DNA of 64,000 nucleotides from Nitrospirota bacterium (GCA_963790025.1 CAWBMP010000002.1:640001-704000), one strand, 5' to 3'. Numbered from the stretch's first letter, positions 30,581-36,641 are shown. Program-made: numbers and translations. Notes: generated by a model not told the origin, from the sequence alone.

Positions 30581-31489
30581 ATGAGGAAAATATTAATACT
30601 GCTTATGGCACTTTTATGTGTTGGTGCCTGTTCAAAAGGCGGAGGCTTACAGGGCAATTACTTAGTAAAGATTGATGGTACGACCCTCACCAAGGAAGAT
30701 GTGCAGGCCGAAATGAATGCACTGCCTGAAATGGCAAAAGAATTCTTTCAGGGGCCTGAAGGTACCGCACGGTTTGTCGACGAACTGACTAAAAAAGAAA
30801 TGCTGTATCTCGAAGCCAAGAAAAAAGGCCTCGATAAGAATAAGGACTTTGAAAGAAAAGTGGAAGATTTCAGGAAGATTACCCTGATTAACGAACTGCT
30901 CGAAAAAGAAATAGAGGCATCGTCAAAGATCAGCGAGAAGGACGCCCAGGACTTTTACAATAGCCATAAAGATGATTTTATGATGCACAATCAAATCAAG
31001 CTGAGCCAGATAGTGGTTCAAAATGAAGCCGATGCAAAAAAAGCTTATGAACAACTCAAGAATGGCGCGGACTTCGCAAAAGTGGCTTCCACAATGTCGA
31101 CTGATAAAAAGTCTGCGAAGTCAGGAGGCGACATGGGTTCCTTTAAGAAAGGGGAGCTTACCCCTGAAATCGACCAGGTGGCCTTCAGATTGAAGAAGGG
31201 AGAAGTCAGCATGCCGGTAAGCTTAAAGGACGGCATTCATATTTTTAAAGTAACCGATGTAAAGGGACCGATTGTTGAATACGATAAGGTCAAGGGAATG
31301 ATCATGCAGCGTCTTACAGCCGAAAAGCAGAAAAGCAGCTTTGATAACTATATAGAGGGCCTCAAAAAGACTTACAAGGTTGAAATTAACAAGGACGAAC
31401 TTGCAAAGATGACTGCCGCACCGAAGGCGGCGCCAGCACCTCAAACGCCGCCTGTTACACAACCGGCACCCGCACCGGAGAAAAAATAA
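30581..31489 (+). CDS. PpiC/PrsA-type peptidyl-prolyl isomerase lipoprotein
   Basis: Lipobox VGAC; parvulin motif FAKVA..S.D..SAKSGGDMG. Confidence 0.85.
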   Translation: MRKILILLMALLCVGACSKGGGLQGNYLVKIDGTTLTKEDVQAEMNALPEMAKEFFQGPEGTARFVDELTKKEMLYLEAKKKGLDKNKDFERKVEDFRKITLINELLEKEIEASSKISEKDAQDFYNSHKDDFMMHNQIKLSQIVVQNEADAKKAYEQLKNGADFAKVASTMSTDKKSAKSGGDMGSFKKGELTPEIDQVAFRLKKGEVSMPVSLKDGIHIFKVTDVKGPIVEYDKVKGMIMQRLTAEKQKSSFDNYIEGLKKTYKVEINKDELAKMTAAPKAAPAPQTPPVTQPAPAPEKK

Positions 31490-31496
31490 TTATAAA

Positions 31497-31553
31497 GCTC
31501 ATAGTTCATAGCTCATAAACAGCATTCAACTGCCAAGAGCTATGAACTATGAG
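31497..31553. repeat. Inverted heptamer arms (GCTCATA/TATGAGC type)
   Basis: gctcatagttcatagctc ... gagctatgaactatgag. Confidence 0.8.
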
Positions 31554-31619
31554 ACAGATTTTGCACTTCAACTAATTCATCACCGTCCCCTCTCCCTCAC
31601 ATTCCCAAAGTTATTTGAA

Positions 31620-32387
31620 TAAATGGGACGGTTCTATTTTTCCTCATTTCTCTCCTTCTTTGGCCGCCCTTTCCTCCGTATCATTTCTTCAAGCGTAAAT
31701 CTCTTCTGCAGCATCGCCACGAAAGCCTCGTTCCCATACACTGCTTTCCGCTCCATCTCGCCTTTCATAGCTTCTTTTTCGGTAAGCATTCCCTTCACAA
31801 ATTCCCTGTATTTTATCCTCCGCTCCGCCTCGCTCTCCGACAATTACTCATATATTACGTGCTCATCTACTAACAAGTCCTCTCTCCCATGGCCATATGC
31901 CCGGTAGCTGCTCCACCGATACTCCTTCGGATCATCTACCATTTGCGCCCTTACCGGATTAAGCTCCACATAGCTTCCACAGGCAAGCAGATAATTATCT
32001 TTCGATATTATTATGCTCTTGTACCGGTCTTGCCAGAAATGCCCAATATGCCTGTACTTTCCCTTGTAATACTGAGCATAAGAAAGATTGACGCCCTTCA
32101 TGATCTCCGCCAGACTGCCTCCATTTACTACTGTCTCAACCACCAAATGCACGTGATTAGTCATAAGCACATAATGATAAAGCTTGTAGCCATACTTTTC
32201 TTTATACTTAAGCAATATCTCGATATATCTCTCATAATCCCTTTCATATTGAAATATGTTCTGTCGATTGTTTCCTCTCGTCAGAACATGATATATATGC
32301 TCACTCGGAGCTATACGCGCTGTTCTCGGCATTCTAAACTGTCACCGCCACCCTGTTTCTCTCAAAAAAATAGAACCGTCCCATTTA
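31620..32387 (-). mobile_element. RAYT element copy 1, bounded by perfect 22-bp inverted repeats
   Basis: TAAATGGGACGGTTCTATTTTT (31620-31641) and its reverse complement (32366-32387). Confidence 0.85.
31634..32332 (-). CDS. REP-associated tyrosine (Y1/HUH) transposase, split by an in-frame TAA at 31844-31846
   Basis: MPRTAR..YHVLTRGNNRQ, MTNHVHL (HUH), YVELNPVRA, YRWSSY; the 69-aa tail continues in the same frame. Confidence 0.9.
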
Positions 32388-32468
32388 ATCTTCTTCATCG
32401 TGTAAATTGCCTTAAATTTATTCCGCAAATGTACCCGTCCTATTTAATCTTCCATTTAATCTTGCCGT

Positions 32469-32822
32469 TTATCTTGTTCTCTGGAATTCTCTTCTAAACT
32501 CCCAAACAAATGCTATTACTAAAAAGATCGACATAATTATATTAAGTGGATACCCGAACCATAAAAACATGCAAAGGATGCCATATGAATGAAACAGAAC
32601 AAGGTGATATTTCTTTAATTTATTTTTCTTTTTATGCTCAAACAATTTAATAGCAATAACATAGCCGACCATACTGCCTGAAATAATTATTGATCTCGAC
32701 GCATATTTCCCACCCATAAAAGTAGCAATAAGGTTTGCTAAAAAAATAATGATCGATAATGCAAGTCCCCAGTTTATATATTTAGAATAAAATTGATTAA
32801 TGTTTTTATTTTCCATATACAT
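32469..32822 (-). CDS. Small AT-rich multi-TM hypothetical protein (immunity-protein-like cargo)
   Basis: 117 aa with about four hydrophobic segments, located between two RAYT copies. Confidence 0.6.
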   Translation of the reverse strand: MYMENKNINQFYSKYINWGLALSIIIFLANLIATFMGGKYASRSIIISGSMVGYVIAIKLFEHKKKNKLKKYHLVLFHSYGILCMFLWFGYPLNIIMSIFLVIAFVWEFRREFQRTR

Positions 32823-32846
32823 AACCTATCTTTTTCTATAACTGAA

Positions 32847-33612
32847 TAAATGGGACGGTTCTATTTTTCCTCATTTCTCTCCTTCTTGGGTCGCCCTTTC
32901 CTCCGTATCATTTCTTCAAGCGCAAATCTCTTCTGCAGCATCGCCACGAAAGCCTCGTTCCCATACACTGCTTTCCGCTCCATCTCGCCTTTCATAGCTT
33001 CTTTTTCGGTAAGCATTCCCTTCACAAATTCCCTGTATTTTATCCTCCGCTCCGCCTCGCTCTCCGACAATTACTCATATATTACGTGCTCATCTACTAA
33101 CAAGTCCTCTCTCCCATGGCCATATGCCCGGTAGCTGCTCCACCGATACTCCTTCGGATCATCTACCATTTGCGCCCTTACCGGATTAAGCTCCACATAG
33201 CTTCCACAGGCAAGCAGATAATTATCTTTCGATATTATTATGCTCTTGTACCGGTCTTGCCAGAAATGCCCAATATGCCTGTACTTTCCCTTGTAATACT
33301 GAGCATAAGAAAGATTGACGCCCTTCATGATCTCCGCCAGACTGCCTCCATTTACTACTGTCTCAACCACCAAATGCACGTGATTAGTCATAAGCACATA
33401 ATGATAAAGCTTGTAGCCATACTTTTCTTTATACTTAAGCAATATCTCGATATATCTCTCATAATCCCTTTCATATTGAAATATGTTCTGTCGATTGTTT
33501 CCTCTCGTCAGAACATGATATATATGCTCACTCGGAGCTATACGCGCTGTTCTCGGCATTCTAAACTGTCACCGCCACCCTGTTTCTCTCAAAAAATAGA
33601 ACCGTCCCATTA
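32847..33612 (-). mobile_element. RAYT element copy 2, near-identical to copy 1
   Basis: Same inverted repeats (32847-32868; 33592-33612, one T shorter); only a few substitutions versus copy 1. Confidence 0.85.
32861..33559 (-). CDS. RAYT/Y1 transposase copy 2, same in-frame TAA (33071-33073)
   Basis: The 162-aa part is identical to copy 1. Confidence 0.9.
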
Positions 33613-33619
33613 ATCTTCT

Positions 33620-33960
33620 TCACCCGCCAATTACCGCGCCGCCTATCGTTCCCAATGGCCCCGCGAGTGAACCAATTGCCGTTCCAACTTCAAGTCCGAT
33701 GCTTGACCCGAATGTTGTTCCAACATATTTACCTGCCGCTCCATCTAGAGTTCCGCCAATTATATTTCCAATTAGTTCACCTGTTCCGGCTGAATTGAAA
33801 ATGTTTTTTCCTGTATCCTTGGCAATGCCCCATCCAAAACCGGCATTTGAATTAGCATAGTTTGAAATAGAATTCATAGCACTATCAATAGTCGGCACAG
33901 TCGGCGTTGGTGGTGGCGGTGGTGGCGTGTATGTACCTCCCCCTCCGCCGCCGTTATTTC
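33620..33960 (-). pseudogene. Gly/Pro-linker plus glycine-zipper fragment (Rhs/polymorphic-toxin-tip-like)
   Basis: Frame reads NGGGGGGTYTPPPPPPTPTVPTIDS...GTAIGSLAGPLGTIGGAVIGG*; both ends abut CCATT(T)AATC motifs. Confidence 0.5.
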
Positions 33961-33963
33961 CAT

Positions 33964-34116
33964 TTAATCCCTTTCATCTTTAAATATGTTCTGTCAATTG
34001 TTTCCTCTCGTCAGAACGTGATATATATGCTCACTCGGAGCTATACGCGCTGTTCTCGGCATTCTAAACTGTCACCACCACCCTGTTTCTCTCAAAAAAT
34101 AGAACCGTCCCATTTA
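33964..34116 (-). pseudogene. RAYT copy 3: 5' fragment with one inverted repeat and an early TGA
   Basis: MPRTARIAPSEHIYHVLTRGNN*; repeat at 34095-34116. Confidence 0.85.
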
Positions 34117-34227
34117 ACGCATGACGGAGCTGTCAAAATCGCGTTCCAATCTGAATCCATTTTGGGACAGCCTGCCGTCCCATTTAATTCTTATTTCGTA
34201 AATGTACCCGTCCCATTTTATTTTTCT

Positions 34228-34560
34228 CTACTTGTATCTTGTGATATCGGGCTCTTTCTTAATAAGATCGATTAGTAGTAATATTACAACTATCCCATAG
34301 ATAATAATTAGAGATATGAATGAGCTTGAAGCTGGTTGCCTCGTCAGTATTGCATAGACGACGACTAAGGCAATTACAATCTTTATTACGGTAATTTTTA
34401 AAATGCCGTATTTTATTTGCAGCTTATAATATCTATTCTCTATTAACGGCTTATAAGACTTTGTAAGAATAAGCAGCACCGCATCAAGGAGCACAAATAG
34501 AACAAGGCTACTCACTTCTATGATCCTCAGCAAGTGATCAAATTTTACTAATGTTTCCAT
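34228..34560 (-). CDS. Small AT-rich TM hypothetical protein (immunity-like cargo)
   Basis: 110 aa with about three hydrophobic segments; followed by CGTCCCATTT motifs. Confidence 0.6.
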   Translation of the reverse strand: METLVKFDHLLRIIEVSSLVLFVLLDAVLLILTKSYKPLIENRYYKLQIKYGILKITVIKIVIALVVVYAILTRQPASSSFISLIIIYGIVVILLLIDLIKKEPDITRYK

Positions 34561-34566
34561 ATTCGT

Positions 34567-34896
34567 TTACCTTCTATACCACCACTTTTTCAGAGTGTCG
34601 ATTCTCCTTCCAATCCGCTCTGCCATCCCCTGATATTCTACTGACATCGCACCAACGACCTCGCGAGTTTTATTAATTTTGTCATATCCAATATCTACTG
34701 CTGTTGGAATATTTAACGCCTCGCCAATTCGGTACCCAAGATAATTTTCCATTGCGTGAGACCCACTAATTTTAGCAGCCTCCCATACGACAACTCCAAA
34801 TCTGCCTATTCTTCGGAGAAGTTTCTGGAAACGTGAAAATGAACTAAGAAGCCTCCTATGAATATCGGAGCAACAATTAAAAATAACCGGAGCCAA
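34567..34896 (-). CDS. Hypothetical protein or gene fragment directly upstream of the TM gene
   Basis: ORF track; the 5' part looks chimeric with a short TM ORF starting at ~34928. Confidence 0.4.
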   Translation of the reverse strand: MAPVIFNCCSDIHRRLLSSFSRFQKLLRRIGRFGVVVWEAAKISGSHAMENYLGYRIGEALNIPTAVDIGYDKINKTREVVGAMSVEYQGMAERIGRRIDTLKKWWYRR

Positions 34897-35261
34897 CTTA
34901 TTATTTTTCCTTTTTTTCTACGGTCCATAAATTTCTTTTAAGCTATTTAGAAAAATAGTCATATTCCTTATCTAAACATTTATAACAACTATGAGCAAAA
35001 TCAAAAGCAATTCCAATTTGAGAAGCTCTTCCTCCCCAATTTAAAAGTCCTCTAACTATTGAGGACTGCATTGGTTTTATCAAGAAAGGCGTCCCAATTT
35101 TTGATGGCGTAGTTGCAGCGTGACGCCAAGCGACATAATTAAATGTTCCCGCCGCTCCTTTGCCAGCTACTTTAAATCATTTTTTCTTCAGTAAGTTAAA
35201 GCACGATTGGCCGCCTGTCAATTTTCGTTGCTTTGTAAAAAAAAGTTGCAGGGGTGCTTAC

Positions 35262-36641
35262 CTATTTCCCTATACAAAACTCGCTGAATATTTTATTAAG
35301 AATATCATCTGTGGTAACAGCGCCGATTATAGTTCCCAAATGGTCCAGTGCATCCCGCAGGTACATGGCTATAATCTCAAGTGGAATGTCGTTTTCAAAT
35401 GACTTTACTGCCTCGGAAAGGGCTTGAGCTGCACGGTCGAGTGAATGCTTGTGTCTGATATTGGTAATAAGAGGAATTTCCGCATCCATAGGAACTCCTG
35501 AAGAAGTACACCTGCAATAGATCATGTCTTTCAGCTCCTCAATTCCCTCTCCGGTCAATGCCGATGCCATAACGAAATGCCTCAACCCCTCAGGAATAGC
35601 GAAGTCAGGAGACCGGATATCACACTTATTAATAAGAACGATTGTTTTCTTATGAGCAACAGCTGCAATGAGTTGTTCATCGGCCTTGTCAAGGGGCATG
35701 CTGCTGTCCAGCACAGCGATAACGATATCGGCGCCCTCAATGGCCTTCAGGCTCCTTTTTATACCCTCCGTTTCGGCAAGATTATGGGTCTCCCGAATGC
35801 CGGCCGTATCCATAATACGGAGCGGCAGACCCTTGATATTCAGAGTGTCTTCTATGACATCCCTGGTAGTGCCGGGCATTTCAGTAACGATTGCCCGGTC
35901 CTTTTCTAGAAGTGTGTTCATCAGCGATGATTTTCCAACATTGGGTTTTCCTACAATAGCGGTTGCGACCCCATCTCTGAAAAATCTGCCGTCTTCGTAT
36001 CCGGCTGAAAGGTCTGCCAGCTCCGTGCCGATAGCTCTTAATGTATCAATGACTTCAACCTTCCTGACTGTTTCAATTTCATCCTCAGGAAAATCGATCT
36101 GTGCCTCCACGTATGCGCACAATGTCGTTACACGGTCCTGCAGCGCAGATATTCTCTGTGAGAGCTTCCCTTCAAGCTGGGCCAGGGCGAAACGTTCAGC
36201 CTGTTCCGATCGGGCCTTTATGACATCAATAACCGCTTCTGCCTGAGAGAGGTCTATTCTGCCGTTCAAGAAAGCCCTTTTGGTGAATTCTCCGGGCTCA
36301 GCTATTCTGGCGCCTTCACTGAGGAGAAGCTGGAGCACTGTTTTAAGAGGAAGCATGCCGCCGTGGCAATTGATTTCAACCACATCCTCCCTTGTGTATG
36401 TCCTGGGTGCCCGCATAACTGTAACCAGCACTTCGTCGACTTTCACCCCCCGGGCAGGATCGACAATAAATCCATATGTTATGGTATGTGATGCCGCATC
36501 CCTCAGTCTTTTAGTCGGCGTTGTCAAAAAGATACGGCCGGCTATATCAACCGCACCTTTTCCACTAAGTCGGATAATGCCTATCCCACCCTCGCCTATT
36601 GGAGTGGCTATTGCCGCAATTGTATCGTCAGGATAGATCAT
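35262..36641 (-). CDS. mnmE: tRNA modification GTPase MnmE
   Basis: DTIAAIATP, GKPNVGKSS, DTAGIR and terminal FCIGK. Confidence 0.97.
   Translation of the reverse strand: MIYPDDTIAAIATPIGEGGIGIIRLSGKGAVDIAGRIFLTTPTKRLRDAASHTITYGFIVDPARGVKVDEVLVTVMRAPRTYTREDVVEINCHGGMLPLKTVLQLLLSEGARIAEPGEFTKRAFLNGRIDLSQAEAVIDVIKARSEQAERFALAQLEGKLSQRISALQDRVTTLCAYVEAQIDFPEDEIETVRKVEVIDTLRAIGTELADLSAGYEDGRFFRDGVATAIVGKPNVGKSSLMNTLLEKDRAIVTEMPGTTRDVIEDTLNIKGLPLRIMDTAGIRETHNLAETEGIKRSLKAIEGADIVIAVLDSSMPLDKADEQLIAAVAHKKTIVLINKCDIRSPDFAIPEGLRHFVMASALTGEGIEELKDMIYCRCTSSGVPMDAEIPLITNIRHKHSLDRAAQALSEAVKSFENDIPLEIIAMYLRDALDHLGTIIGAVTTDDILNKIFSEFCIGK

Follow-up and report, generated by a model that had tools for sequence, protein, structure and literature searches.

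TIRtron copies and a putative decayed Rhs module between ppiC and mnmE of a Nitrospirota bacterium

Introduction

The ppiC-mnmE interval of a Nitrospirota bacterium (GCA_963790025.1, here G000) measures 3.77 kb. Units with a Y1/HUH transposase and variants of a short repeat alternate there with AT-rich, co-oriented small open reading frames (ORFs). This arrangement raises the question whether small toxin and immunity genes are captured at the repeat by the HUH enzyme, comparable to an integron, or whether the interval was formed in another way. Capture was the original prediction, made solely from the window, i.e. the analysed stretch of 64,000 nucleotides (CAWBMP010000002.1:640001-704000). 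Coordinates refer to the window; other genomes and contigs are designated G and C.

Structure of the interval

The following features were assigned (TIR, terminal inverted repeat):

31498..31553, no strand: hairpin with perfect 17-nt arms, directly 3' of the ppiC stop (31489), found by repeat search
31582..31591, plus: ACCGTCCCCT at the left island boundary, possibly what is left of a degenerate TIR; this 10-mer recurs in the CCCC variant of relatives
31617..31641, no strand: TIR, 3' end of TIRtron copy 1, holding the stop codon of the full-length frame
31634..32332, minus: TIRYT gene copy 1; 162 codons precede an in-frame TAA (codon 163) and 69 follow it
32366..32390, no strand: TIR, 5' end of copy 1; the repeated unit extends 7 nt beyond, to 32397
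32418..32463, no strand: diverged TIR variant (32418-32451, 85% to 34191-34224) and partial TIR head (32452-32463)
32469..32822, minus: 117-aa ORF with two hydrophobic segments (Kyte-Doolittle scan), 30% G+C
32844..32868, no strand: TIR, 3' end of copy 2, found by inverted-repeat search
32861..33559, minus: TIRYT gene copy 2, TAA at codon 163 as in copy 1
33592..33614, no strand: TIR, 5' end of copy 2, one base deleted; the next 7 nt are common to copy 1
33620..33958, minus: start-less fragment with Gly/Pro run and glycine-zipper-like part, frame open into the transposase stump
33960..34116, minus: third TIRYT copy, 5' stump with about the 33 first codons, 96-97% to the full copies
34163..34224, no strand: two TIR variants (34163-34185 and 34191-34224)
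34228..34560, minus: gene of a 110-aa membrane protein, putative immunity protein, whose homologue follows two Rhs toxins of G010
34567..34896, minus: 109-aa ORF, remnant of an Rhs C-terminal toxin tip, without core or proper start
34897..35261, no strand: AT-rich uncharacterised rest with a 46-aa ORF and a near-motif at 35090, ending at the mnmE stop

What the original prediction had observed was confirmed as a whole. Two units of 782 bp, 99.4% identical, contain the Y1/HUH transposase gene inside 25-nt inverted repeats, and a third copy is present as a 5' fragment with a repeated part of 150 bp. By alignment the shared unit comprises 31616-32397 and 32843-33622, with three substitutions and two one-base indels. 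Direct repeats were found as a pair (31616-31915/32843-33142, 99%) and as a three-way repeat (32235-32384/33462-33611/33965-34114, 93-97%). The inverted repeats flanking each unit measure 22-25 nt with 96-100% complementarity. Other TIRtron fragments of G000, located at C4, show 88-93% identity.

Each gene described before as encoding 162 aa is a gene of about 232 codons, interrupted by an in-frame TAA in both full copies alike. The truncated protein retains the entire catalytic core, as seen in the translation and with Pfam. All three substitutions between the copies fall 3' of the premature stop. By position alone the probability of this is about 0.02; the observation is weak, yet it would fit a continuing constraint on a 162-aa core enzyme that is still active. 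The copies share 7 nt past one TIR and 1 nt past the other. A unit transposed with asymmetric ends, as known for HUH elements, and a segmental duplication would explain this equally well. The TGA of the Gly-rich ORF is the final 3 nt of the run common to both copies. The third copy has its upstream TIR at 34095-34116; a partial TIR-like head (33960-33969) marks its junction with the Gly-rich fragment.

Ten sites had been named for the motif CGTCCCATTT. Four of them are exact (32377, 34106, 34176, 34209), three deviate by a single mismatch or indel (32436, 33603, 35090), and two hold only the 3' half (32452-32463, 33960-33969). The site at 31583 is a poor match, although the 10-mer 31582-31591 is common to the CCCC variant of the relatives. 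The near-motif at 35090 is probably due to chance. With up to one mismatch, 12 matches were counted in the window versus 4.97 ± 2.30 in shuffled sequence; none of 100 shuffles reached 12, and nine matches lie within 31.6-35.1 kb. Mapped over the whole genome, as had been suggested, the motif gave 23 exact copies, where composition would predict about 6.5. Exact copies of the 19-mer AAATAGAACCGTCCCATTT number eight in the genome (four in the window, three at C4:39137-40078, one at C2:436557). At 33603 a ninth site with a one-base deletion was found; G000 contains nine TIR copies.

The TIR variant at 32418..32463 begins 6 nt past the stop of the 117-aa ORF, and the variant at 34191-34224 begins 8 nt past the stop of the 110-aa gene. 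The latter corresponds to the TIR that codes for the final residues of the G010 homologue of the 110-aa protein. Passive accumulation would explain such tight placement past two immunity-like genes only loosely. The variant at 34163-34185 folds as a 6-bp GC-rich hairpin. The TIRs have no fold of their own (MFE 0 to -2.8 kcal/mol; z-scores -1.46 to +0.82 versus shuffles). Partial TIR heads end after ...ATGG (twice in the window, once in C4), GGGGACG and GGTTCC (both in G014). Thus, no fixed cut site is visible.

Classification of the transposase

The element is of a known kind, a TIRtron with a TIRYT gene (TnpAY1 subclass 2.1, RAYT group 1). Pfam Y1_Tnp matches residues 11-123 of the TIRYT protein with E 1.7e-16, and the translation contains the HUH motif NHVH, FWQ and the tyrosine motif YVELNP. 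Orthologues are intact with 228-242 aa; their amino acid identity to the window protein is 68-76%, and the MAGs that encode them bear the labels of several phyla. Quentin et al. (2018, PMC6006769) equate subclass 2.1 with the TIRYTs of Di Nocera et al. (2013). For this subclass they give NHVH/NH[YF]H, W[EQ], YIELNP/Y[IV]HLNP and a median of 238 aa (their Table 1), and also a C-terminal HTH-like domain (Bac_DnaA_C, HTH_23 or HTH_28). The motifs and the orthologue lengths agree with this description; in the window copies the frame stops at codon 163. The 69-aa tail showed no HTH family and no Pfam or NCBIfam match at E ≤ 0.1. Since short and long versions are given in the same source, a short tail may escape the profiles.

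Like TIRtrons, the element combines a Y1/HUH protein of about 230-240 aa (NHVH, W[EQ], Y[IV]ELNP) with terminal inverted repeats instead of REP hairpins, and the upstream TIR lies about 50-60 nt before the ATG. Elsewhere TIRs occur singly, as dimers or in clusters; a genome has several divergent paralogues, and near-identical duplicates occur occasionally. The same TIR pair borders all eight full-length orthologues from other MAGs. Of the nine G000 paralogues examined, seven are bordered by TIRs of their own, located 52-61 nt 5' of the ATG, and six of these seven contain the core GGGGTCA. In the description by Di Nocera et al. (2013, PMC3733652), the TIR of TIRtrons contains GGGGWSAS, placed at a fairly constant distance 5' of the gene. 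With GGGACGG, the TIR core of the window copies differs from the published one. In relatives it is GGGGACGG, with seven of eight positions matching, about 50 nt before the ATG; GGGGTCAG of a paralogue matches exactly. The window element also differs from known TIRtrons in that both copies are nonsense-truncated and stand as a tandem cluster within putative toxin-immunity remnants.

REPtrons and the REPIN-RAYT systems of E. coli and Pseudomonas are similar in the HUH/Y1 gene between inverted short repeats, which are also present elsewhere as inverted doublets. In contrast to these, sequence inspection and folding revealed neither a palindrome with GT[AG]G foot nor a stable hairpin at the TIRs, and only nine copies occur in G000. 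The best NCBIfam match, REP_Tyr_transpos (NF047646), reached 68.1 bits, below the curated equivalog cut-off of 80. Membership in RAYT/REPtron was rejected because of this score, the non-palindromic repeats and the low copy number. The expectation that RAYTs are usually single-copy is too strong for group 1, with near-identical duplicates reported for 6.3% (Bertels et al. 2017, PMC5581495). IS200/IS605 elements resemble the unit in small size, the Y1/HUH enzyme as sole protein, one asymmetric end and no visible target duplication, but have Y...Q instead of YVELNP (Y...NP) and subterminal hairpins instead of inverted repeats. This assignment was rejected on account of the tyrosine motif, the inverted-repeat ends and a low score with the NCBIfam IS200 profile (NF033573, 25.8 versus a cut-off of 55).

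Cargo genes

The small ORFs are AT-rich and co-oriented as described before, with 30-35% G+C versus 47% in the genome and all on the same strand. An origin from Rhs toxin tips and immunity genes had been proposed for them; it stood for the unit of 109-aa ORF and 110-aa gene, for which homologues were found in G010, but not for the other two ORFs, for which no relatives were detected.

Only the last 73-83 residues or so of the 109-aa ORF align to Rhs toxin tips. It matches the extreme C-terminus of an RHS-repeat protein of G010:C34 (34%, E 4e-10), which itself shows RHS_repeat with E 1.3e-44, and the C-terminus of an RHS-repeat protein of G010:C2 (37% over 73 aa, E 3e-9). The 110-aa ORF matches the gene 3' of a G010 Rhs toxin (34%, E 1e-19), and homologues follow both toxins. 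Tip and 110-aa gene are spaced by 7 nt. Judged by these similarities, this cargo unit is a decayed Rhs remnant of tip end and putative membrane immunity gene. Neither an rhs gene nor an Rhs core end was found in G000, so the arrangement of an Rhs orphan array, a main rhs upstream and orphans with a core piece, is absent from this genome.

The 117-aa ORF has no second copy in the genome and retrieved only itself among 5.8 billion protein clusters. For the Gly-rich fragment no relatives were found in the databases searched, and the comparison with the Rhs tips of G010 (E 0.28) was not significant. Two of the three cargo units are thus without detectable link to Rhs. Both the Gly-rich fragment and the 117-aa protein may be further toxin/immunity remnants.

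The repeat in related genomes

The TIR was detected in 15 of 41 related genomes, the CCCC variant being among their forms. Across the family it is present in 35 of 61 genomes with up to 61 copies per genome, versus 0-2 for the reversed control. Short TIR doublets, 45-80 bp apart, keep pieces of the element ends and occur in several copies per genome. Across genera, the TIR sequence is far better conserved than the transposase gene. In two genomes from different families, one solo TIR follows rplQ directly.

The repeat had been placed at the boundaries of the modules; this holds and recurs in other genomes. The Rhs core-end search gave 45 matches in 19 of 61 genomes, 41 of them with known TIR positions. 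Six matches, representing five loci in five genera, have a TIR within 2.5 kb; G009:C244 is an additional case of a TIR at an Rhs array. By chance about 0.3 would be expected by our estimate, which presumes uniform TIR placement, and the ends of Rhs arrays may simply tolerate insertions. The three loci with compared flanks occupy different chromosomal contexts. In G010 and G539, TIRs supply the final codons of immunity ORFs that are unrelated. The cognate TIRYT is absent in each of five genomes with a TIR inside Rhs arrays, which fits TIRs brought by the modules, or relics. The order at G010:C34 matches the window, with Rhs toxin, immunity gene, three TIRs and TIRYT; the TIRtron shares 77% DNA identity, toxin and immunity protein just 34% protein identity. 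The kind of element is ordinary; what stands out is the recurrence of its repeat at toxin-immunity arrays of related bacteria.

Turnover of the cargo at ppiC-mnmE had been expected among relatives. The gap measures 45-181 bp in 11 of the 12 relatives with adjacent ppiC and mnmE, so that there is neither a platform nor cargo turnover in them. The twelfth has a gap of 918 bp, without the repeat inside. Hence, the whole 3.77-kb interval is lineage-specific. The hairpin at 31498..31553, a terminator-like element at the left edge of the insert, has comparable counterparts in the short gaps of the relatives.

Origin of the interval

The interpretation given in the original prediction is partly supported. 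We regard the interval as probably a lineage-specific accretion of TIRtron and decayed Rhs modules that recombined, with no dedicated capture platform. Two selfish parts would be involved, the TIRtron as an IS-like unit of about 775 bp (two recent copies, one stump, diverged and partial TIRs) and modules, now decayed, from an orphan array of polymorphic toxins of Rhs type. The TIR family may have come to lie habitually directly 3' of immunity genes at the module boundaries of Rhs arrays, either by insertion there or by travelling along during module exchange. Additional insertion beside existing TIRs could have followed, and the conserved TIRtron copies would have recombined homologously; neighbouring DNA would thereby have been duplicated and reshuffled. 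The varied ends of the partial heads point to nesting and recombination, not to a fixed cut. We infer this order of events; an intermediate, an empty-site pair or a recombinant was not observed for the window locus. HUH-catalysed cassette capture is not needed to explain the interval.

Such capture, with toxin/immunity cassettes taken up or shuffled by single-strand cutting and joining at the TIR, integron-like and integrase-free, appears unlikely. It would account for the TIR or variant at every module boundary of the window, the partial heads at two junctions there and one at C4, and the TIRs at Rhs module boundaries of six further genomes, and the truncated protein still has its whole catalytic core. 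TA modules bracketed by TIRs or TIR doublets (G000:C4, G001:C6, G014:C63) and a 65-aa antitoxin-like ORF within a 270-bp TIR pair (G024:C3) point in the same direction. However, the orientation of the bracketing is not constant, and the ParE/RHH cassette of C4 recurs in G002 at 90% identity beside a serine recombinase without the repeat, the homology stopping 28-38 bp from the TIRs. Among 14 orthologous TIRtrons examined, at least nine are plain repeat-gene-repeat units with no additional repeat in the stretch viewed; one adjoins an Rhs gene and one has repeat-bracketed cargo. Varying breakpoints of the partial heads, the lack of a platform in relatives, the enzyme missing from five genomes with TIRs in Rhs arrays and the nonsense codons in both local copies also argue against capture. 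The likeness to integrons is one of picture only, namely co-oriented small promoter-less ORFs between recurring short sites. Integrons differ in the recombinase beside a fixed primary site, the site at constant position in each cassette and the enzyme class, and here no platform is conserved in relatives.

Alternatively, TIRtron, 117-aa gene and TIRtron could be a composite that originated in a single duplication and is translocated as a unit, the remainder of the interval being unrelated debris. The 117-aa gene lies exactly between the two copies, which are far closer to each other than to the stump or the C4 fragments. This is very unlikely nevertheless, as the 117-aa gene has no second copy in the genome or in the protein clusters, and the TIR variant at its 3' side has a parallel past the end of the 110-aa gene, which speaks for paralogous module ends and less for a newly formed composite.

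Equally improbable is a domesticated single-strand nuclease of REP/RAYT type in service of the host, duplicated by chance, with its cognate repeats acting as terminators or regulatory sites after small genes. REP_Tyr_transpos as best match, the conservation of the TIR relative to the gene, the solo TIR past rplQ and the 61 copies in one genome agree with it. The score below the cut-off, the absence of a footed palindrome or stable hairpin, the nine copies in G000, the broken local genes and the related proteins in MAGs of several phyla do not.

Mis-assembly of a single element as a tandem duplication is extremely improbable, for although no independent read or contig covers 32338-33543, short-read contigs of one public run, which may be the source sample, bridge four junctions (31575-31897, 33582-33995, 33966-34114 and 34085-34230), the genome was assembled in 5 contigs, the flanks differ on both sides, and the five differences between the copies argue against a duplication made by the assembler.

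The accretion of TIRtron and Rhs modules has a counterpart in E. coli, where the IS-like part is H-rpt, a member of ISAs1. The likeness to the Rhs loci lies in truncated tips and immunity genes downstream of or detached from rhs and in H-rpt embedded among the tips. PMC3032704 states that tips were annotated as insertion sequences due to H-rpt and that transposition has not been seen. The transposase class is another one, and the window genome is without rhs core; furthermore, an HUH element takes the IS-like part here, and in several genera its TIR follows immunity genes directly.

Structure of the ppiC-mnmE interval

The window covers positions 640001-704000 of contig C2 in the source genome, G000. 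The interval between the convergent genes ppiC (30581-31489, +) and mnmE (35262-36641, -) comprises 3772 bp, and all its genes lie on the minus strand, in the same direction as mnmE. It is a lineage-specific insert. Copies of a TIRtron, a Y1/HUH transposase gene (TIRYT) between 25-nt terminal inverted repeats (TIRs), alternate with small cargo genes, and one cargo unit is a remnant of an Rhs module, i.e. a toxin tip (the C-terminal end of an RHS-repeat protein) with its immunity gene. The identification of the parts listed below is near-certain.

Features of the ppiC-mnmE interval
31498-31553: hairpin with perfect 17-nt arms, precedes the first TIR
31634-32332, minus strand: transposase copy 1, after a TIR
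Between transposase copy 1 and the 117-aa ORF: TIR and diverged TIR variant with partial TIR head
32469-32822, minus strand: 117-aa membrane ORF
32861-33559, minus strand: transposase copy 2, with a TIR on either side
33620-33958, minus strand: start-less frame, Gly/Pro and glycine-zipper-like
33960-34116, minus strand: third transposase copy, a 150-bp 5' stump with TIR
Between the stump and the 110-aa ORF: two further TIR variants
34228-34560, minus strand: 110-aa membrane ORF
34567-34896, minus strand: 109-aa ORF
After the 109-aa ORF, up to mnmE: AT-rich remainder, 365 bp

The original prediction described repeat units, a recurring motif and AT-rich cargo, and this description was accurate. 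In the alignment the full units 31616-32397 and 32843-33622 differ by three substitutions and two single-base indels. With at most one mismatch the motif was found 12 times in the window, nine of these within the locus, compared to 4.97 +/- 2.30 matches in shuffles, a clear excess over chance. Mapped genome-wide, its 19-mer core has eight exact copies in 3.45 Mb. The G+C content of the cargo ORFs is 30-35%, that of the genome 47%. Two near-identical transposase copies are present as described, but not their length of 162 aa: each is a gene of about 232 codons broken by TAA at codon 163, which is CAG in the orthologues of the genomes G010 and G014. The 489-bp catalytic part is free of substitutions; all three between the full copies (31661, 31664, 31696) fall in the 210 bp that follow the nonsense codon. 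Considering position only, the probability of this is about 0.02, and the substitutions are too few for an interpretation.

Promoter-like sites are rarer in the locus than in shuffles, and the only terminator-like score inside the array belongs to a hairpin at 34163. An Rfam search of the locus gave a single sub-threshold chance match. One public DNA run contains 0.48 of the sampled words from the stretch, and no contig of this run covers 32338-33543 or 34884-35400; RNA runs containing the stretch are not listed.

Identity of the element

The element is a TIRtron and belongs to a known kind. The transposase is a Y1/HUH enzyme (Pfam Y1_Tnp, E 1.7e-16); its best NCBIfam match, REP_Tyr_transpos, stays below the cut-off (68.1 bits, cut-off 80), and the NCBIfam IS200 score is 25.8 against a cut-off of 55. 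The motifs NHVH, FWQ and YVELNP and the length of intact orthologues (228-242 aa) fit TnpAY1 subclass 2.1 as tabulated by Quentin et al. 2018 (PMC6006769, Table 1). These authors detected no REP sequences beside subclass 2.1 and regard it as equivalent to the TIRYT genes that Di Nocera et al. described in 2013. The TIRtron units of the latter study have terminal inverted repeats on both sides, with GGGGWSAS in common (PMC3733652). For group 1 RAYTs, near-identical duplicates were given as 6.3%, the top value among true RAYT groups (Bertels et al. 2017, PMC5581495).

The two TIR arms are mutually inverted, and a single arm has no fold of its own. REP-like hairpin folding of single TIRs was considered and rejected by a folding test. 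Relatives have GGGGACGG at the corresponding position, about 50 nt upstream of the ATG, and the stop codon of the TIRYT gene lies inside the downstream TIR. Orthologues of 68-76% identity, all between the same TIR pair, were found in MAGs labelled Nitrospirota, Nitrospinae, Thermodesulfobacteriota, Syntrophaceae and others.

Nine TIRYT paralogues of the source genome (G000) with 40-47% identity were examined. Seven of them contain open frames of 228-333 aa and are preceded, 52-61 nt before the ATG, by TIRs of their own (contig positions C4:1215183, C5:56299, C4:1525595, C2:336957, C4:751893, C5:305451 and C4:1309581), and the core GGGGTCA occurs in six of the seven. Thus, a whole series of different TIRtrons coexists in the genome. 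A related yet distinct repeat (…TTAGAAGCGTCCCATTTTTT…) forms an inverted pair, 41 bp apart, at G000:C2:493310-493380, which may be a doublet of another TIR family. We know of no TIRtron for which activity was demonstrated. The present element adds one more well-delimited family, with miniature derivatives, to this class.

Cargo and Rhs remnant

The original prediction of toxin/immunity cargo was partly confirmed. The 109-aa ORF aligns with the very C-terminal end of two RHS-repeat proteins from G010, a genome of the same family and a different genus (34% over 83 residues, E 4e-10; 37% over 73 residues, E 3e-9). The protein on contig C34 of G010 contains RHS_repeat (E 1.3e-44) and TcdB_toxin_midN. 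The 110-aa ORF begins 7 nt after the 109-aa ORF; it shares 34% identity (E 1e-19) with the 112-aa gene following one G010 toxin and groups with the 110-aa gene following the other. Of 301 genomes searched in the order, only 4 contain members of this small family. No RHS-repeat gene was found in the source genome, so tip and presumed immunity gene are a stranded remnant.

For the glycine-rich fragment and the 117-aa ORF relatives could not be assigned. The fragment has no paralogue in the source genome, one further weak match among 401 sampled genomes of the phylum (E 7.8e-4), two low-complexity matches among 1.84 billion representatives and Atlas scores of at most 0.84. The 117-aa ORF matches itself only and has no likeness to the 110-aa protein (E 0.72). 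Their designation as toxin and immunity gene comes solely from composition, hydrophobic segments and position. In the Rhs tips of G009:C244:8831-9601 (L172) and of G010 (L118/L135), a long glycine-zipper-rich stretch is followed by a short conserved C-terminal part. This architecture points to toxins that target membranes, each with a small membrane protein after it.

Comparison with relatives and proposed history

An integron-like platform was proposed originally, and the interval was compared across 12 relatives with adjacent ppiC and mnmE. In 11 of them the gap measures 45-181 bp and holds a hairpin; in the twelfth, G014, it has 918 bp with no TIR copy inside. Hence, the array was inserted in the lineage of the source genome only; changing cargo on a conserved platform was not observed. 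On the minus strand of the G014 gap (C45:30361-31279, L026) a cold-shock-protein-like ORF is apparent by reading the sequence.

As a whole, the account of TIRtron and Rhs remnants, joined by insertion and then recombination, is rather probable; the history of the locus is much less certain than the identification of its parts. A piece of an Rhs array with a TIRtron already directly 3' of the immunity gene, as in G010, would have arrived downstream of mnmE, and may have used an earlier TIR at the site, of which 31582-31591 (10 nt) is a possible remnant. More TIRtrons would have inserted beside existing TIRs. Homologous recombination between conserved TIRtron copies could have led to the alternation and to deletions, one of which would have joined the stump to the glycine-rich frame. 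The last duplication would postdate the nonsense mutation; either the 162-aa core was still active or the event was recombinational.

TIRs at Rhs module boundaries

Boundaries of Rhs modules are a recurrent location of the TIR family. With 2-10 copies per genome it was found there in seven genomes of six genera, directly 3' of immunity genes and mostly without its transposase. The order on G010:C34 (Rhs toxin, immunity gene, three TIRs, TIRYT) equals that of window 33960-34900, and the first TIR encodes the final residues of the immunity protein. The TIRtrons share 77% DNA identity, toxin and immunity protein 34% protein identity. On G009:C244, rhs gene, immunity gene, orphan glycine-rich tip and a second small gene are followed by a solo TIR 90 bp on.

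For an unselected sample, a 107-aa query from the Rhs core end, the conserved part before the tip, gave 45 matches in 19 of 61 family genomes, with TIR places known for 41. A TIR lies within 2.5 kb of the core end for six of the 41, which represent five loci in five genera (G010:C34, G539:C20, G314:C93, G018:C15 and G380:C14). Crudely estimated from copy numbers and genome sizes with uniform placement, about 0.3 coincidences are expected by chance; the Poisson tail is about 1e-5, or about 1e-3 if non-coding DNA is threefold richer at array ends. In G539 the TIR encodes the tail of an 89-aa gene located between a tip and the following core fragment; the TIR of G314 marks the 5' edge of an orphan module of core, tip and immunity gene, and in G018 a TIR doublet follows the tip between two membrane genes, CPBP-like as read from the sequences. 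Flanks were compared at three loci, and the chromosomal contexts differ. TIRYT genes of more than 50% identity were not found in G009, G314, G380, G018 and G539 (completeness 84-100%).

Searches of the TIRYT/TIRtron and Rhs-orphan-RAYT literature gave no report of such placement. Element and toxin remnants are of known kinds, and this recurrence is the one aspect that could deserve further work. The nearest classical parallel to the locus are the Rhs elements of E. coli, where an IS-like H-repeat is embedded among orphan tips (PMC3032704).

It is conceivable, although we consider it improbable, that the TIR marks the 3' end of toxin modules and moves with them in horizontal exchange; the modules, Rhs tips with immunity genes and some toxin-antitoxin (TA) pairs, would be transferred and stacked as tip-immunity-TIR units. 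Either the HUH enzyme would cut and join single strands at the TIR, or the TIRtron would serve as downstream homology arm opposite the Rhs core. If true, cassette shuffling would be built on a HUH element and not on an integrase. Placement by co-mobility or as a common recombination arm would bear on the acquisition and stacking of orphan tips and immunity genes and would be the first biological role for TIRYT enzymes. Should array ends merely tolerate junk, there is nothing unusual about the locus.

TA-type Pfam families were detected within 400 bp of the TIR at 7 of 35 further sites, six of the seven in the fragmented genome G011; the scan covered 83 of 84 ORFs, one containing X being left out. 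Among these, several DUF families are components of TA systems. TA neighbours are thus frequent, and they also occur at G000:C4, G001:C6, G014:C63 and G024:C3. The remaining sites of the 35 adjoin rplQ, hisF, epimerase, HflX, cytochromes etc. TA enrichment was rejected as support for capture, since six of the seven sites belong to one genome and many TIRs lie beside housekeeping genes. At G001:C6:13360-14500 (L119) a PIN/antitoxin pair has a TIR-bounded miniature element of about 135 bp on both sides, with further copies in the same toxin-antitoxin island. A cognate transposase was not found in this assembly (88% complete).

Proposed cassette capture by the HUH enzyme

Catalysis of toxin/immunity cassette capture by the resident HUH enzyme, as originally proposed for the recurring motif, is unlikely: the catalytic core is whole in both local enzymes, but both are truncated, breakpoints vary and TIRtrons are mostly plain units. 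Partial TIR heads beside full TIRs end after ...ATGG at 32452-32463 and 33960-33969 of the window and near 40048 on contig C4; in G014 they end after GGGGACG and after GGTTCC. Judged from these sequences, the varying ends look like nested insertion and deletion and not like a single cleavage site.

For 14 orthologous TIRtrons the neighbours were taken from ORF lists. Nine are plain units with no further TIR in the viewed stretch and three have a duplicated TIR only. One adjoins an Rhs gene (G010:C34), and in one (G014:C63) a second TIR brackets a small two-gene unit. An older second fragment set with 88-93% identity lies either side of a ParE/RHH pair at G000:C4:39137-40300. It includes an internally deleted copy of about 215 bp and a 3' fragment whose TIR variant has a 6-nt insertion. 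Over 641 bp the ParE/RHH cassette shares 90% identity with one in G002, which lies beside a serine recombinase with other flanks and no TIRs; the homology ends 28-38 bp before the TIRs of the source genome.

Distribution of the TIR

The TIR was found in 35 of 61 family genomes with 1-61 copies each, compared to 0-2 for the reversed control. Short TIR doublets keeping bits of the element ends occur in several copies per genome. The TIR pattern reaches a REP-like abundance in G567, with 61 copies, many of which form doublets; the other genomes have 2-25. Two genomes from different families carry a solo TIR just 3' of rplQ, the gene of ribosomal protein L17, at G016:C1:454719 (L168) and G034:C20:14892 (L166). 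Either an old copy was inherited vertically, or TIRs inserted at this site more than once.
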